Source: Candidatus Latescibacterota bacterium (lineage in GTDB: Bacteria > Latescibacterota > UBA2968 > GCA-2709665). Taken from it: a stretch of 64,000 nt of DNA. The notes below the pieces were generated by a model that saw only the letters and a list, made by a program, of their open reading frames with translations, ran no database searches and was not told where the DNA came from. The stretch's first letter is position 1. Each line of letters starts with the position of its first letter. The position numbers were made by a program, and so were the translations under genes. The stretch spans positions 3,296,001 through 3,360,000 of the forward strand of contig OZ242358.1 in assembly GCA_965208835.1 (NCBI GenBank). Direction: 5' to 3'. Shown here one piece after another: positions 1 to 62,204 of this stretch.

Positions 1-7
1 GATGCAA

Positions 8-145
8 GATGCGTTCATGTTTGATAATGCCGCTTGCATTCGAAAATGCGTTGAAATCCCCCCACCGCATCAGCCGTCGCCGGCCCTTCGACAGGCTCAG
101 GGAACGGCTCGACTTCTGCGACTACCCCTCAAGGGGGGAGTGATT
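8..145 (+). repeat. Palindromic repeat (ATCCCCCCACCG...CCCCTCAAGGGGGGAGTGAT family), copy 1, with a 23-nt unit at 84-106
   Basis: Both flanks align with 7909-8222. Confidence 0.8.
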
Positions 146-182
146 TGATCACTAAGCTGGCGCTCGCATTCCCTGTCACCTA

Positions 183-218
183 TCTGGTTGCGGCTGAGCA
201 GAGCGAAGCCGCGCCAGG
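183..218 (+). repeat. Short palindromic element end (TCTGGTTGCGGC...GCCGCGCCAGG)
   Basis: GCGGCT/AGCCGC inverted repeat just downstream of the PD40 gene. Confidence 0.45.
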
Positions 219-235
219 CGCAGAACACCGAACAC

Positions 236-2780: not shown

Positions 2781-3446
2781 CTATGACGGTTCGTTTCGAA
2801 TAGAGAAGAAATACGGATGCGCTTCTTTCTGTCCATCATCGGCCGCAATCCCGCCTCCAACGATACCTTCCTGTTCAATCTCAAACCCGGTTTCAGCGAG
2901 AATCTTCCTGTACGTTCCGGGCCCAAAGTTGCTCCAATACATGGTTTCGCCGAGGAAGTCATCCTCAGTGTATCCGGGCCCGTCATCTTTCGGTGCAACC
3001 GTAAACAGAAGGAGTCCGCCCGGCCTGAGCCATCGCGCGAACCGCCGAAAGAGTTCTCGATGCTCCTGTCTCGGAATATGGAAGATCGCGTAGTAGCTGA
3101 CAATTGCATCGAAGCAGGCCGCGGGGAATCCGGTTTCCAGAACGTCGGCGCGGATGAACGTGGCTGAAGGGACATTTTTTCTCGCCATACCGATCATGCT
3201 CGATGAGATATCGACCCCGGTAACTTCCAATTTATCAGCCAGTTGACGCGATACGGGAATGCCCGCGCCGCACCCGACGTCAAGGACTCCGGAGCCCGGC
3301 GCAAGGCGTTCTTCGATCAGATTGAGTTCCACACCGGCCGCGGGACTTCGCTGGTTCGCATAGTCCATCGCGCATCGGTCGTAGGCCGCCCTGACAAACG
3401 CTCGATAATCGGTTTCGGGATCGTTTGCAATCTTTAATGACATCAC
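2781..3446 (-). CDS. Class I SAM-dependent methyltransferase
   Basis: VLDVGCGAG, FDAIVSYYAIFH, WLRPGG. Confidence 0.9.
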   Translation of the reverse strand: MMSLKIANDPETDYRAFVRAAYDRCAMDYANQRSPAAGVELNLIEERLAPGSGVLDVGCGAGIPVSRQLADKLEVTGVDISSSMIGMARKNVPSATFIRADVLETGFPAACFDAIVSYYAIFHIPRQEHRELFRRFARWLRPGGLLLFTVAPKDDGPGYTEDDFLGETMYWSNFGPGTYRKILAETGFEIEQEGIVGGGIAADDGQKEAHPYFFSIRNEPS

Positions 3447-3950
3447 ACCTGCCCAAAAACGGATTTGATTAACTGCGAAAAGACGAATAGACGAGAATAC
3501 GAAACGGCGAAAAGGCGAAACTACGAATTACACGAATAAATGCGAATAACACCAGAAAACGAAAGACGAAACGGCGAATAGACTAAAAACCAGAAAAAAG
3601 GCTGAAAGACAAAAGCATAACTACGAATGGCGCGAATTTACACGAAAAAGACGGTGGTGATAGTCGTCCGCAGCCATTGGCGAAACGAGTCGGTCCTGCC
3701 TTCGCGAAGACTGTCATCCTGAGGACTTGCCCTGCTTGTGCTGAGCCTGTCGAAGCAAGCCTGCGGTCCCTGAGCTTGGCGAAGGGTCGAAGGGGCCCCC
3801 AGGCCAACGAAGGATCTACTGCAGCATCGGATCATTCACGTGGGATTTTCACGTGTCGATACCTGAGAGGCAGCACGTCCGCCCGCAGCACGGGACGGAG
3901 GCGGCGAGAGATTTTTCGACATCTCTCAGAATGACATGCGTTGCAACAAA
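3447..3950 (+). repeat. Composite repeat island: CGAA-rich tract, TGTCATCCTGAG...CTCAGAATGACA REP doublet and nested 23-nt units
   Basis: Blocks align with 58658-59242; inverted termini at ~3712 and ~3936. Confidence 0.8.
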
Positions 3951-4029
3951 CACCGACTGATGACCACCCGGTTTTCGTCATCCGGGTCGGACCTGTACAA
4001 AATCGCCAATTGAAGCCGCTTTTCGAGCC

Positions 4030-4226
4030 TAACCTTGATTCGCAAGTCATCGGGGACGTTAATTCGAATATGTGCTTGTAAATAAAGGCGATTAAACAGC
4101 GGATTACCAGGATACACCAGGTCACTGGACGTGAACGGAAAAAACGTCATTCTATACGTCGATATTGCCCCGTTTCGGAGGGTTCTATCGCGTCGCCGCG
4201 TTGCTGTTTTCTTCGGATTGAGGCTA
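4030..4226 (-). mobile_element. 197-bp MITE, copy 1
   Basis: Imperfect TIRs TAACCTTGATT / ATTGAGGCTA; reverse complement aligns full length with 35942-36138. Confidence 0.8.
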
Positions 4227-4265
4227 ATCTCTGAAAATCCGAAGGTTCCTGGACACCAGTCTCCA

Positions 4266-6635
4266 TTACTCTTCACGAATGGCGTCTACGGGATTCAGCC
4301 TGGCCGCCCGAAGGGTTTGTCCGGCGACAATAAACATAACGATCGATAGAGAAAGCAACGTCGAATAAACAAACACATCCGCACCCATCTGAACTCGATA
4401 GGAGAAATCCAGAAGCCATAGGGACATCACATAATATGCGACAGGCCACGCCAGGAAACCGGCCACGAGACCCATGGGTGCGAACTTTCTCAATTGCATC
4501 GCCACAACCCGCCATTTCGATGCCCCCAGAACTCGACGAATGCCAATCTGTTTCTTGTCCCGTTCAACCGTCGATTTGACGAATCCCGCCAGACCGATTC
4601 CGGCCAACATCAGCGTGATGGAAACGCAAATGCCGACGATTTTCTTTAACGCGTGTTCTTCCGAGTACAATCGTTCGAACCGATCTGTCAGGAATCCGCT
4701 ATTCGACGGGAATGCCGTCCGGGGCGCAACTCGTGACCATGTCTGATGAATCCAGTCTACTGCATCGTCTGTACGTTCCGGATGGATTCTTGCCAGAATG
4801 GGGGCGCTACTTTCAACGAGGAAGATGCCAAGTGGTTCGACCGGATTTTGCTGTGACATGAAATGAAAATCCTCGACCACCCCCACAACGGTTCGACGTT
4901 TCCTCCACCAGGTGATTTCCTCCCCGATCGGCGAGTTCAATCCCAGCAGCCTTACCGCAGTTTCATTGAGAAGGCACGTGCGTTGATAATCATCCTGGAT
5001 CGAGAAATCTCTTCCTTGTTTGATTTCAATGCCCAGGGTCTCCAGGTAGCGACGACTCGCCGGGAGACTCCGGATGGATATATTGCCAGTAACTGAACGA
5101 CCTCGCGCCGTGTAGCTTTGCAGATTCCCTCCCGGGATGCCGCCGGATGCAACATCGAGAATGGATGGCGATCGTTTCAACTCCCGCTCAATCGTCAACC
5201 GTTGAGAAGCCGACAACCCCGGAGTCGAAAAATAGAAGACCTGTTCGGGCGACAGACCCAGTTTCTTCTTGTCGACGTGGTCCAGCTGCAAGTATACGAT
5301 TGAAGCAACAATCAGCAGAAGTGTGGAAATCCCAACCTGAAACAGGAACAGCACATTCCGCAACCACGCTGCCGTTCTGAATGCCAATCTGCCTTCCACG
5401 ATATTTGCGGGCTGTGCCCTGTGCAGCCAGAGAGCTGGAGACGTCCCAACTCCAACGAACAGAAGGAGGAGAAGCACGAAGCATGCTGCGATCACGCCGG
5501 CAACCTGTTCAAACTCGTAAGCCTGGACCGTGAGCGTGACGCGATTCAACCAGGGCAGACACAAAGTCGCGATCGTGACAGAAGCCAGCAGCACTATTGT
5601 GACGATCAAGAGAGAATCTGCCGCTATCTGAAAAACCGGTTCGGATCGCCTTGCCCCAAAAACCCTTCTGGCTCCAATTTCCCTCGAGCGGTCCAGAAAT
5701 CGGGCCGTGTTGAAATTCACAACATTGGTACAGACACCGGCCAAAATGAAAATTGCCAGGACTGCAGGGACGTAGATATAGACGGATCGGCTGAGACTCA
5801 CGTTGGCCGAAAACTGTTGATTCTGCGATGGGTCAAGATGGATATCCGTCAATGGCTGGAGAGAGAGCTGAAAGCGTTTGGCATCTCGATTTCCGAAGAA
5901 TCCCCGAATGAATTCGCGTTCCTGCGCAGCGAAGTCACTGGAGGTATCGCCTTCATCAAGCAGCACGTACGTGCAAACGGACATCCAGCGTTTGGAATTA
6001 AAATAGGTCGGGAGATGATTGGTAACACTGTCAATTGAGAACAGATAGTCAAAGGAAATGTGCGAATTGCGGGGAACGTCCTTCAGGACACCGGTTACCG
6101 TCAAGAAATACGATTTGCCCTTGAATTCCCCCGCTTTGATGACCCTTTCCAGTGGATCTTGATTCCCAAACAGCTCTCTCGACAGGGATTCTGTAATTAC
6201 AATTGAAAAGGGCCTTGCGAGCGCAGTCCGTGCGTCTCCCTTGACCAGTGGAAAGGTGAATATATCAAATACGCTGGCATCGACACTGTAACCCGACGCG
6301 CGGATATTGCGGTCCTGGAACTCGACCACTCTGTTAAAGCGGAAAAACCGGACGTAGTCATGGACAAAGGGATATTCTTCAGTCAGACGCGGTCCCATGA
6401 ACCACGCGGACTGATGCCAGATGCGTTCACCGTTATCGAATTTCTGACGCACTGACAGACGGAATATCCTCTCGACATTCTTGTGAAACCTGTCATAGCT
6501 GAGTTCATTCTGTACGTAGACTGCAATCAATAGTACGGCAGCGATACCAATGGCCAGGCTCGAGATGTTTATGGTTGATGCGACCTTGTGTCTTTTCAGG
6601 TTTCGCCACGAAACGATGAGGTGCGATTTCAACAT
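4266..6635 (-). CDS. ABC transporter permease, duplicated MacB/FtsX type
   Basis: ELSYDRFH, LQPLTDIHL, REIGARRVFGA, GIRRVLGAS, NPVDAIREE. Confidence 0.92.
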   Translation of the reverse strand: MLKSHLIVSWRNLKRHKVASTINISSLAIGIAAVLLIAVYVQNELSYDRFHKNVERIFRLSVRQKFDNGERIWHQSAWFMGPRLTEEYPFVHDYVRFFRFNRVVEFQDRNIRASGYSVDASVFDIFTFPLVKGDARTALARPFSIVITESLSRELFGNQDPLERVIKAGEFKGKSYFLTVTGVLKDVPRNSHISFDYLFSIDSVTNHLPTYFNSKRWMSVCTYVLLDEGDTSSDFAAQEREFIRGFFGNRDAKRFQLSLQPLTDIHLDPSQNQQFSANVSLSRSVYIYVPAVLAIFILAGVCTNVVNFNTARFLDRSREIGARRVFGARRSEPVFQIAADSLLIVTIVLLASVTIATLCLPWLNRVTLTVQAYEFEQVAGVIAACFVLLLLLFVGVGTSPALWLHRAQPANIVEGRLAFRTAAWLRNVLFLFQVGISTLLLIVASIVYLQLDHVDKKKLGLSPEQVFYFSTPGLSASQRLTIERELKRSPSILDVASGGIPGGNLQSYTARGRSVTGNISIRSLPASRRYLETLGIEIKQGRDFSIQDDYQRTCLLNETAVRLLGLNSPIGEEITWWRKRRTVVGVVEDFHFMSQQNPVEPLGIFLVESSAPILARIHPERTDDAVDWIHQTWSRVAPRTAFPSNSGFLTDRFERLYSEEHALKKIVGICVSITLMLAGIGLAGFVKSTVERDKKQIGIRRVLGASKWRVVAMQLRKFAPMGLVAGFLAWPVAYYVMSLWLLDFSYRVQMGADVFVYSTLLSLSIVMFIVAGQTLRAARLNPVDAIREE

Positions 6636-7908: not shown

Positions 7909-8222
7909 GATGCGTGCGTGTTTGGTCATGCCGCTTGCATTCGGTAATGTGTTGAAATCCCCCCACCGAATCAGCCGTCGCCGTCCCCTTCGACATTTCG
8001 ACAGGCTCAATGCAAGCAGGCTCAGCGACAACAGATTCAGGGCAGGTAATGGGTCTCCTGACAACCGCTTAATGACATCCAATGAACTGAATAATGCGTG
8101 GTCATTGAGCTTGTCGAAATGCCCGCCACTTAACAGCCCTTCGACAGGCTCAGGGCAACGCCTTCGTCTAGCATGGGAACCGGCTCGGCTTCTGCGACTC
8201 CCCCTCAAGGGGGGAGTGATTG
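7909..8222 (+). repeat. Palindromic repeat copy 2, expanded by several 23-nt units
   Basis: Aligns with 8-145; units at 7986-8031 (nested), 8099-8121, 8137-8159. Confidence 0.8.
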
Positions 8223-51310: not shown

Positions 51311-51400
51311 GTGGTCATTGCCTTTGCTGCCTGCACTGAGCCTGCGGTCCCTGAGCCTGCCGAAGGGCCGAAGTGGCTTGTCGAAATGTCGAAATGCCCG
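51311..51400 (+). repeat. Multiply nested 23-nt hairpin units
   Basis: CCTGCACTGAGCCTG[CGGTCCCTGAGCCTGCCGAAGGG]CCGAAGTG followed by two TCGAAATG tails. Confidence 0.8.
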
Positions 51401-58657: not shown

Positions 58658-59242
58658 TACCTGTCCAAAAACGGATTTGATTAACTACGAAAATCGCGAA
58701 ATAAACGGCTGGAAAAATCGTCCAAGACCATTGGCGAAACGAGTCGATCCTACCTTTGCGAAGACTGTCATGTTGAGGACTTGCCTCGAGCGTGTCGAAA
58801 GGCCATCAGGCAGTCGATGCGTCCGCGCACAAGCTCATCTACAAAGGGCATGTAGTACACGTACAATCGAGAATACGGGAGATTCTTCGCTGCGCTGTGA
58901 TTGACGCGCTTTGCGATTGCCCGTGGTGAAACGCTGAGCCCACACCTTCGCAGAGCATGTTATCCTGAGAAGGCCCGCGCGCTCAGAATGGCATGTTTAA
59001 AGATTGTCATGCACGTGGCTTCCCGTTGTCATCCATAGGACCTGCCCTGAGCGTGCTTGCATTGAGCTTGTCGAAATGTCGAAGGGTGCCCCCAGGCCGA
59101 CGAAGGATCTACTGCAGCATCGGTCCCTCCCCGTGTGATTTGCACGTGTCGATACCTGAGGGGCAGCACGTCCGCCTGCAGCGCGAGACCGAAGCGCCGA
59201 CAGATGCTTAACTCCGCTCGGAATGCCATGTATTGCAACAAA
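58658..59242 (+). repeat. Composite repeat island, copy 2
   Basis: Shares blocks with 3447-3950; 23-nt units at 58780-58802 and 59041-59086 (nested). Confidence 0.8.
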
Positions 59243-62114: not shown

Positions 62115-62204
62115 AGGGCTTGTCGAAGCGCCCGCGTTTCGGCACCCTTTTCCTTCGCCGACCCTTCGACCCTTCGACAGGCTCAGGGAGCGGCTAAGGG
62201 CGCC
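62115..62204. repeat. Inverted pair of hairpin units with a nested 23-nt insert
   Basis: GCTTGTCGAAGCG ... CCCTTCGA[CCCTTCGACAGGCTCAGGGAGCG]GCTAAGGG. Confidence 0.7.

Follow-up and report, generated by a model that had tools for sequence, protein, structure and literature searches.

The DNA considered here is a window of 64,000 nt from the genome of a Candidatus Latescibacterota bacterium (assembly GCA_965208835.1, contig OZ242358.1, positions 3,296,001 to 3,360,000), and its subject is a hairpin unit of 23 nt that lies inside copies of itself. The analysed genome, called G000 below, is a single contig of 5.18 Mb and is 97.8%-complete. At window positions 3726-3794, a nested array of such units occupies the loop of a TGTC-tagged palindrome resembling a repetitive extragenic palindrome (REP). 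The array reads CTTGCCCTG[CTTGTGCTGAGCCTGTCGAAGCA]AGCCTG[CGGTCCCTGAGCTTGGCGAAGGG]TCGAAGGG: one 23-nt host unit, split after its nt 9 and nt 15 by two complete 23-nt units (bracketed). Re-reading the sequence bears out this parse, which was first proposed by a model given the letters and a list of open reading frames (ORFs), hereafter the sequence-only reading. The locus is intergenic, with a methyltransferase-like ORF on one side (2781-3446, minus strand) and a MacB/FtsX-like ORF on the other (4266-6635, minus strand).

All parts of the array lie on the plus strand. The outer palindrome, present in 30 genomic copies with both anchors, 9 of them empty, opens with its left arm (TGTCATCCTGAGGA, 3712-3725). 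Host piece 1 (nt 1-9, 3726-3734) is made of the tag CTTG, the stem strand CCCT and a G; the host is found intact in 10 paralogous outer elements, and at the orthologous locus of the congeners G006 and G009. Insert 1 (3735-3757, 23 nt, stem TGCT/AGCA) follows host nt 9 at TG^AGC, the caret marking the cut. Then come host piece 2 (nt 10-15, AGCCTG, 3758-3763), insert 2 (3764-3786, 23 nt, stem CCCT/AGGG) placed after host nt 15 at TGAGCCTG^TCGAA, and host piece 3 (nt 16-23, TCGAAGGG, 3787-3794). The rest of the outer loop and the right arm, together GCCCCCAGGCCAACGAAGGATCT, fill 3795-3817, as judged from the sequence and the paralog series.

The ORF at 3677-3934 (plus strand, 85 amino acids) crosses the nested array; it has no Pfam match and is probably a spurious frame made by the repeats. 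The outer hairpin also forms the left end of a larger repeat of ~230-340 nt (window 3620-3960), whose right flank is found in ~30 genomic copies at 76-96% identity. Its far end, near 3928-3941, resembles by eye only an inverted TGTCAT..CTGAG start.

The unit consists of a 4-nt tag, a 4-bp variable stem and the conserved core TGAGCNTGNCGAA. With up to one mismatch, this core occurs 12 times in the window against 1.8 expected (the largest of 100 shuffles gave 5); its exact form occurs 163 times in G000, against ~2.4 expected from order-0 base composition. Among these 163 units the commonest tags are TGGT (36), CTTG (28), CGCT (24), CGGT (15) and CCTG (10), with C as first base in 102 and T in 44; CGTC is found in only 3. 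The stem covaries: all three variable pairs are matched in 56 of 74 distinct 23-mers, against 21.4 +/- 3.3 when the 3' ends are shuffled (5000 rounds, maximum 34). There are six stem types with at least three distinct units each, and the stems include CCCT/AGGG, CATT/AATG, TCCT/AGGG, TGCT/AGCA, CGCT/AGCG and CACT/AGTG. From the sequence we infer that the core TGAGCYTGTCGAA may prolong the stem by T-A, G.A, A.G and G-C pairs and end in a 5-nt loop, CYTGT. Inverted doublets of units are common in G000 (e.g. 8099-8159), and roughly 95 units are solo. Rfam 15 gave no match at gathering score in the window, and none at E up to 1 in 3600-4000.

How fixed is the length? Around each of the 163 cores we cut out every block from 15 to 32 nt in length and checked whether the new junction reads as an exact host core. 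Excision of 23 nt restored such a core for 22 of 163 units and excision of 24 nt for 5; lengths of 17, 19, 26-28 and 30-32 nt gave 1-4 restorations each, and all other lengths within 15-32 nt none. The off-length restorations come largely from the same loci, where the printed hosts are without a restored paired stem. The five 24-nt cases are all of a single subfamily, which sits at TGAGC^TTGTCGAA, so that a length of exactly 23 nt, as first claimed, describes the larger class and has to be joined by a 24-nt one. Allowing one host mismatch raises the counts to 41 at 23 nt and 13 at 24 nt, over a background of up to 5-14 at 27-32 nt. The two inserts of 3726-3794 are not among the 22: removal of one alone leaves the host unrestored. 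A recursive parser gave a 45/9/5 split, which is a biased length spectrum as the parser tries 23 nt first; it also overlooks hosts with two side-by-side inserts, such as 3726-3794. The other two regularities of the sequence-only reading hold throughout: 27 hosts are restored by an insert in the same sense and 0 by an inverted one (any length 19-28), and 27 of 27 inserts differ from their own host, at 1-11 of 23 positions, with a different stem in 18.

The single insertion bond proposed after nt 15 does not hold genome-wide, and insert 1 of the array itself sits at nt 9. Sorted by how many host-core letters precede the cut, the 22 exact events of 23 nt form four groups: 4 events with two letters (TG^AGC, unit nt 9), 5 events with five to six letters (unit nt 12-13), 7 events with seven to nine letters (the proposed nt-15 bond, here nt 14-16), and 6 ambiguous events, with 5 to 9-10 letters, whose bond is not resolvable. 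Targets other than units are palindrome centres as well: the loop of the outer element, palindromes of the type GAAACG^CCCGCGTTTC with covarying flanks, GCCGAGC^CGGCGACGGC, and a ~200-nt repeat with 54 copies (up to one mismatch in a 15-nt anchor), ~9-10 of which carry one subfamily replacing two bases. The unit enters the unpaired central parts of hairpins, mostly other units, and builds nests up to four or five deep.

Paralogs of the outer element form a graded series. Its inner part measures 10-12 nt and holds no unit in 9 of the 30 copies with both anchors; in 10 it measures 32-34 nt and holds one unit. Longer inner parts occur once each, at 56 nt (one nest), 78 nt (the 3726-3794 array) and 127 nt. 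The remaining copies are three eroded ones (58, 61 and 69 nt) and five with other sequence (30, 74, 76, 83 and 88 nt). We set aside 48 right-anchor matches without a left anchor within 220 nt, mostly chance matches at two mismatches, though at least three are real arrays.

Orthologous loci in the congeners G002, G006, G009 and G013, with flanks roughly 72-95% identical, display empty and filled alleles of the kind the sequence-only reading had suggested looking for. At the 3726-3794 locus, G006 and G009 have the same host with an exact 23-nt gap after nt 9, where G000 carries insert 1 (3735-3757); their nt-15 bond is filled by a different unit, CTTGCATTGAGCTTGTCGAAATG. At the 51345 locus, the nested unit of G009 itself contains one more exact 23-nt unit, and G006 has one 8-nt 3' module fewer. 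At the 59056 locus, G000 has host and nested unit, G006 the host alone and G009 no complete unit. An exact 23-nt insert after nt 9 at G000 2394132 is missing in G002 and G013, and in the opposite arm of that locus G000 has one 23-nt unit more than G013. At G000 4242040-4242091, a 23-nt unit of G000 is missing in G009, and one and the same host is filled differently in the two genomes, with 24 nt at TGAGC^ in G009 and with 23 nt at the nt-15 bond in G000. Since orthologs show exact 23-nt presence or absence, together with different inserts in one host, the unit has been mobile since the species of the genus diverged, and its insertion is both repeated and recent. Empty and filled orthologs differ by exactly 23 nt and their flanks are unduplicated, as the sequence-only reading had supposed; the terminal inverted repeats with target-site duplication that mark a miniature inverted-repeat transposable element (MITE) of a DDE transposon are not seen. 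Whole units of 23 or 24 nt have been added, without target duplication and always in host orientation. Larger unit-containing repeats of 240-390 nt are also present or absent at precise sites.

Elsewhere in the window, three further nests were found where they had been reported. On the minus strand, 7986-8031 is a host (5' half 8017-8031, 3' half 7986-7993, one stem mismatch) around a nested 23-nt unit at 7994-8016. On the plus strand, 51312-51396 is a four-level nest, partly eroded, with its innermost unit at 51345-51367 in a host at 51330-51344 and 51368-51375; its 8-nt 3' modules recur as a period-8 array at 51379-51396. Also on the plus strand, the host at 59041-59055 and 59079-59086 holds a unit at 59056-59078, inside a further copy of the outer REP-like element (feature 59041-59086). 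A fourth nest (62151-62202, minus strand) is real, but its unit at 62170-62192 lies after nt 12 of a variant host, TTAGC^TCGGCGAA, and not at the nt-15 bond; an orphan 3' module (TCGAAGGG) is found at 62162-62169. Of the five cases originally assigned to that bond four stand, their junctions being ambiguous by 2-5 nt where insert and host share letters.

The solo units were likewise located as reported. Two of them, at 8099-8121 (plus) and 8137-8159 (minus), form an inverted doublet, 8099-8159. A slightly degenerate one with a CGAGC core, at 58780-58802 (plus), lies in another outer REP-like copy and is kept in G006 and G009. The fourth, at 84-106 (minus), sits in the central loop of a ~200-nt repeat at window 1-220 with G-rich inverted ends (...GGGGGGATTTCAA). 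This repeat is present in G006 and missing at the orthologous place in G009; relatives of 240-320 nt are found at precise insertion sites in G009 only. Two other repeats border the array of 3726-3794. Directly upstream of the outer REP-like element, about 6 copies of an 8-nt tandem unit, CGAAAAGA, occupy 3476-3527. A ~200-nt repeat at 4029-4228 adjoins the array and contains no 23-nt unit; it has 86 genomic BLAST matches, 58 of them of at least 180 nt, with a median identity of 88%, and many copies in congeners at 90-96% identity. It is missing at the orthologous site of G006 and G009, where alignments jump from 4030 to 4218.

To follow nesting beyond G000 we used a nest signature, the inner 3' end followed by the outer 3' half (TGAGCNTGTCGAANNNTCGAA). 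It occurs in 15 of 15 genomes of the genus, 6-29 times each, and in 0 of 26 genomes of eight neighbouring genera; the reversed control gave 0. The core is present in 39-154 copies per genome in the genus, and in 0-3 copies in other relatives except three genomes (17, 40 and 17). The one with 40 cores, G024 of a neighbouring family, has no nest signature at the nt-15 bond; core abundance therefore does not automatically bring nesting.

A scan across phyla for the same signature, with one genome per species, returned at least 120 loci. A pattern of 17 specified bases would by chance alone match ~70 times in the 596 Gb searched on two strands, so the matches needed a test that the pattern does not force. 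We turned to the upstream half of the host. Of the matches listed (128 in 120 loci), at least 10 have an exact TGAGCNTG upstream at 7 nt from the inner core, as for a 23-nt unit, and at least 16 have it at 8 nt, as for a 24-nt unit; at the other distances from 0 to 12 nt there is one at 3 nt, one at 6 nt and none elsewhere. The outer stem is paired 3/3 in 23 of the 26 matches at 7 or 8 nt. The genomes with nests, among the same matches, are labelled as Planctomycetota, Bacteroidota, Chloroflexota, Binatia, Pseudomonadota, Latescibacterota and Actinomycetota. Their titles name Pirellulales, Bacteroidales, Bacteroidia, Flavobacterium, Bacteroidaceae, Litorilinea, Chloroflexia, Candidatus Binatia (five loci), Polaromonas, Xenophilus, Brachymonas, Betaproteobacteria, two Pseudomonadota metagenome-assembled genomes (MAGs), Candidatus Latescibacterota and Terrimesophilobacter.

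Some of these loci are elaborate. One labelled Latescibacterota (L081) is a triple nest with the same subfamilies as G000, and another, L103, stacks 5' modules of 16 nt and 3' modules of 8 nt, five of each kind. Two unrelated MAGs are extremely rich in cores, with 619 copies in a Binatia MAG of 4.1 Mb (G044, locus L032) and 337 in one of 1.8 Mb (G042, locus L074); Terrimesophilobacter has 27, a Nostoc 21 and a Polaromonas 18, against 0-1 for reversed controls. G042 and G000 share whole 23-nt subfamilies (CGGTCCCT.., CTTGCCCT.., TGGTTCCT..).

The sequence-only reading had suggested that the unit is moved by an HUH/RAYT transposase (RAYT, REP-associated tyrosine transposase) or by a GIY-YIG nuclease; neither suggestion is supported. 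We searched for Y1_Tnp in 41 relatives and 5 other genomes, and for the other families in G000 alone. The Y1_Tnp/RAYT profile (PF01797) has 0 matches in G000, with a control that matched in 6 of 14 genomes. Of the 14 congeners, 6 have none, among them G009 with its lineage-specific nested unit, and 8 have weak partial matches inside long frames. Two neighbouring genomes rich in Y1 (32 and 75 matches) are poor in cores (1 and 17), and no units flank the RAYT-like ORF of the 619-copy genome over ~1.5 kb to its left or right. A RAYT or IS200 mover is rejected for the genus and is also unsupported in other core-rich genomes. GIY-YIG has a single match in G000, in a 651-aa frame taken to be a putative UvrC. 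RVT_1 has 0 matches in G000 (its control matched in 3 of 14 genomes), and profiles for the TnpB zinc ribbon, the IS110 DEDD domain and Relaxase have no match there.

Two further ideas about the cut were put aside. A type IA topoisomerase, with C four bases before the cut, would account for the nt-15 bond, yet neither the remaining bonds nor the unit's 3' end agree with it. Nor is the tag a target-site duplication of the loop motif CYTG: the two copies would then share one side of the hairpin, and the majority of tags read otherwise. Insertion sequences are few in G000, with an IS1595-like element (accompanied by a DNA methylase) and an IS3-like one, two copies each. A 2.5-kb duplicate of 99.9-100% identity (L147, G000:C1:219708-222275 and 5118790-5121357) encodes the IS1595-like transposase beside an N6/N4 DNA methylase, an arrangement suggestive of an insertion sequence with the methylase as passenger.

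We propose, with a probability of roughly 60%, that the unit, 23 nt long in most subfamilies and 24 nt in one, is a micro-element of the non-autonomous kind, directed at hairpin loops and moved in trans by an as yet unrecognised activity. Such an element would comprise an unpaired 5' tag of 4-5 nt, usually starting with C, and a 19-nt hairpin whose four outer pairs vary in a compensatory manner. Donor and target may both be recognised as folded single strands. Tag and hairpin foot would then set the ends of the unit, much as RAYT reads the ends of a REP from the tetranucleotide next to its hairpin. The mover would be a trans-acting protein outside the known hairpin transposases, and could be a widespread host enzyme. 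Finished nests erode by slippage among stacked 8-nt 3' modules, and also travel inside larger repeats.

Several observations weigh against this proposal. No candidate for the moving enzyme was identified in G000. There is no replication-strand bias either, with 92 of the 163 units on the leading and 71 on the lagging strand (p = 0.12, in a test weakened by the hitch-hiking of units inside inverted doublets), a result that lends no support to IS200/IS605-like movement at the template of the lagging strand. Thermodynamically the hairpins are weak: as folded DNA, the 23-mers reach -0.1 to -2.7 kcal/mol with z-scores of -0.4 to +0.6, and by nearest-neighbour DNA folding seven constructs are no stabler than their shuffles (z -0.5 to +1.4). 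As folding gives no thermodynamic support, it is the covariation that argues for the stem. At the 59056 locus, G009 is not a clean empty site, as it has a 7-nt CCCTGAG remnant or duplication. Each insert subfamily is moreover tied to one site: AGCA-stem units lie after nt 9 in all seven nested copies read, in hosts from at least 4 subfamilies, CTCG- or CTTG-tagged CCCT units after nt 12-13, and CGGT- or TGGT-tagged CCCT units after nt 14-16. Genome-wide, TGAGC^TCGGCGA hosts are filled in 21 cases and empty in 0; these composites may multiply as composites, not by new insertions.

The tie of subfamily to site is also expected from the main rival, homology-templated copying, in which a few founder nests were spread by template switching or short-patch gene conversion, with TGAGCNTG and TCGAA plus the stem as homology arms and no dedicated enzyme. 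It predicts what is seen for AGCA-stem units at nt 9, for CTCG-tagged units at nt 12-13 and for the 24-nt class after TGAGC, and it accounts equally for the same orientation, the exact length, the absent target duplication, the lack of a transposase and of a strand bias, and the occurrence in many phyla. The CATT-type nests, with their 2-5 nt of junction ambiguity, fit it too. However, the variable core position beside identical CATT-type inserts is A, C, G or T depending on the host; because this adjacent base differs among hosts, there was no co-conversion to the left of these inserts. For the nt-9 class the left homology amounts to TG only, although the hosts come from at least 4 subfamilies, and units also sit in non-homologous targets (the outer REP-like loop, the 200-nt repeat and the GAAACG^CCCGCGTTTC-type palindromes). 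Templated copying leaves the origin of founder nests unexplained, while the geometry recurs with different tags and stems in seven phyla. We consider it unlikely.

More improbable still is an RNA intermediate: units would be transcribed, trimmed to a tag-plus-hairpin RNA and copied into hairpin loops by reverse transcription or RNA-templated repair. The strict orientation of insertion and the definition of unit ends relative to the hairpin would suit such a path, and Elhai and colleagues reportedly proposed an RNA route for cyanobacterial repeats of similar size. Against it stand the lack of an RVT_1 match in G000, despite a control that found the domain elsewhere, and the lack of any Rfam family matching the locus or the window.

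Slippage without any insertion, by independent duplications of a 15-nt 5' module and an 8-nt 3' module followed by compensatory drift, is close to refuted as the builder of the nests, and we give it very little credence. The 8-nt module does slip, as the period-8 array at 51379-51396 and the missing module of G006 attest; 5' and 3' module counts are unequal in 36 of 163 arrays (strict count), and the stacked modules of L103 are nearly identical. Yet 5' and 3' modules pair level by level, inner ones with inner ones and outer ones with outer ones, and equal counts dominate the multi-module arrays, with (2,2) in 26, (3,3) in 6 and 5 + 5 in L103. The inserts differ from their hosts in all 27 cases, 18 of them in the stem, and are identical to subfamilies dispersed elsewhere in the genome. 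Orthologous differences, finally, are single 23-nt blocks, not separate steps of 15 and 8 nt. An assembly artefact in a repeat-rich region is hardly credible: short-read contigs of the probable source run (Logan) do break in the array (end at 3739, restart at 3854), but independent assemblies have the same host with 23-nt modules at orthologous loci, and the signature is found in all 15 genomes of the genus and in unrelated public genomes.

A non-autonomous element entering hairpin loops thus remains our preferred reading, and it can tentatively be carried further. There may be one family of tag-plus-hairpin modules of 23-24 nt with a 13-nt core, mobile across much of bacteria without a transposase of its own, which enters apical hairpin loops, preferably of its own kind, through a widespread host activity so far unrecognised; we think this extension possible, but hold it with clear reserve. 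Its source could, speculatively, be an exonuclease-trimmed single-stranded DNA hairpin, with a 5' tail of 4-5 nt and its 3' end flush, caught by a loop that had been nicked. If such a host activity exists, these units would be the smallest known mobile DNAs, the origin of transposase-less REP families would be explained, and the growth of hairpins from within would be one of the general ways in which bacterial genomes evolve.

By what route REP-like repeats that lack a transposase multiply has been a question ever since they were catalogued. The 23-nt family offers unusually clean evidence for movement, with its fixed length, mapped bonds, empty and filled alleles and occurrence in distant phyla; as the usual enzymes are excluded in a complete genome, the question of the mover becomes testable. 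In practical terms, nested arrays break short-read assemblies and create spurious ORFs, 3677-3934 probably being one.

The closest known kind are the small dispersed repeats (SDRs) of Nostocaceae. These are said to be 21-27 nt long, to form hairpins with compensatory changes, and to make complex nested insertions within their own copies and within larger small repeats. They have reportedly been considered perhaps the smallest mobile elements, have no assigned transposase and are said to be confined to one cyanobacterial subgroup. With the SDRs so described, the present units share the size (23 or 24 nt), the dispersal (163 exact cores) and the self-nesting (27 exact host restorations). They differ in that the 23-nt family, with one and the same 13-nt core, belongs to a genus outside the cyanobacteria and recurs in genomes that carry the labels of seven phyla, though 21 cores do occur in a Nostoc. 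The sequence-only reading was aware of no description of fixed-length self-nesting; that view is not supported, as Elhai et al. 2008 (Genome Res 18:1484) reportedly described cyanobacterial repeats of 21-27 nt lying within their own copies, which gives the principle of self-nesting a precedent. A sentence on that work states that HIP1 may be a place of insertion for SDR5 and that SDRs were not seen beyond the Nostocaceae, and the SDRs of Elhai et al. 2008 are mentioned in a passage of PMC3116915.

The outer element of the locus has a likeness of its own. According to passages of Di Nocera et al. 2013 (PMC3733652), CGTC/TGTC-tagged REPs carry an unpaired 5' tetranucleotide tag (CGTC, TGTC or CCTC) by a hairpin with an 8-9-bp stem starting A-T, a 4-5-nt loop and a CCA-like tail; they are found in many phyla, have no dedicated transposase, and some sit within small palindromes. 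With TGTC, a stem starting AT and then GGAT, the outer element fits this description in its tag and its A-T start. The 23-nt unit may resemble these REPs in its tag beside a hairpin; like them it occurs in many phyla, and none of the searched transposase families matched in G000. It differs in having 4 Watson-Crick pairs, unless the possible T-A, G.A, A.G, G-C extension is counted, in lacking a tail, and in its tags, which are CTTG, CGGT, TGGT or CGCT and almost never CGTC. Neither the word 'nested' nor the string TGAGC occurs in PMC3733652.

With REPs, REPINs and RAYT, as described in passages of PMC3116915 and PMC6006769, the unit has in common a high copy number, inverted doublets and non-autonomous mobility. 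It may also share the short hairpin with an adjoining tetranucleotide, as a tag and a covarying stem are present, but its tag is not GTAG and its fold is no stabler than that of shuffles. There is no RAYT gene in G000, with none or weak partial matches in the genus. The passages of these two papers make no mention of self-nesting. The IS200/IS605 elements (PMC6006769, in part, and general knowledge) likewise insert in a fixed orientation without target duplication, their ends set by a hairpin and a short guide at its foot. They are set apart by their TnpA, which has no counterpart in G000, by their lagging-strand bias, by a single target tetranucleotide as opposed to several target bonds, and by a size of ~0.7-2 kb as opposed to 23 nt. 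Insertion sequences that target REPs (IS1397; Tobes and Pareja 2006, cited in PMC3116915) also prefer palindromic units, but encode transposases; the DNA inserted here is the 23-nt hairpin itself.

Literature searches for nested REPs gave nothing relevant among the papers listed, and neither the core nor its reverse complement was found in the literature searched. Compared with all of these systems, what is new is the exclusion of RAYT, reverse transcriptase, TnpB and IS110 by profile search in a complete genome, and, for the element itself, one core across phyla, the 23/24-nt rule, the mapped insertion bonds, and the empty and filled alleles at orthologous loci.

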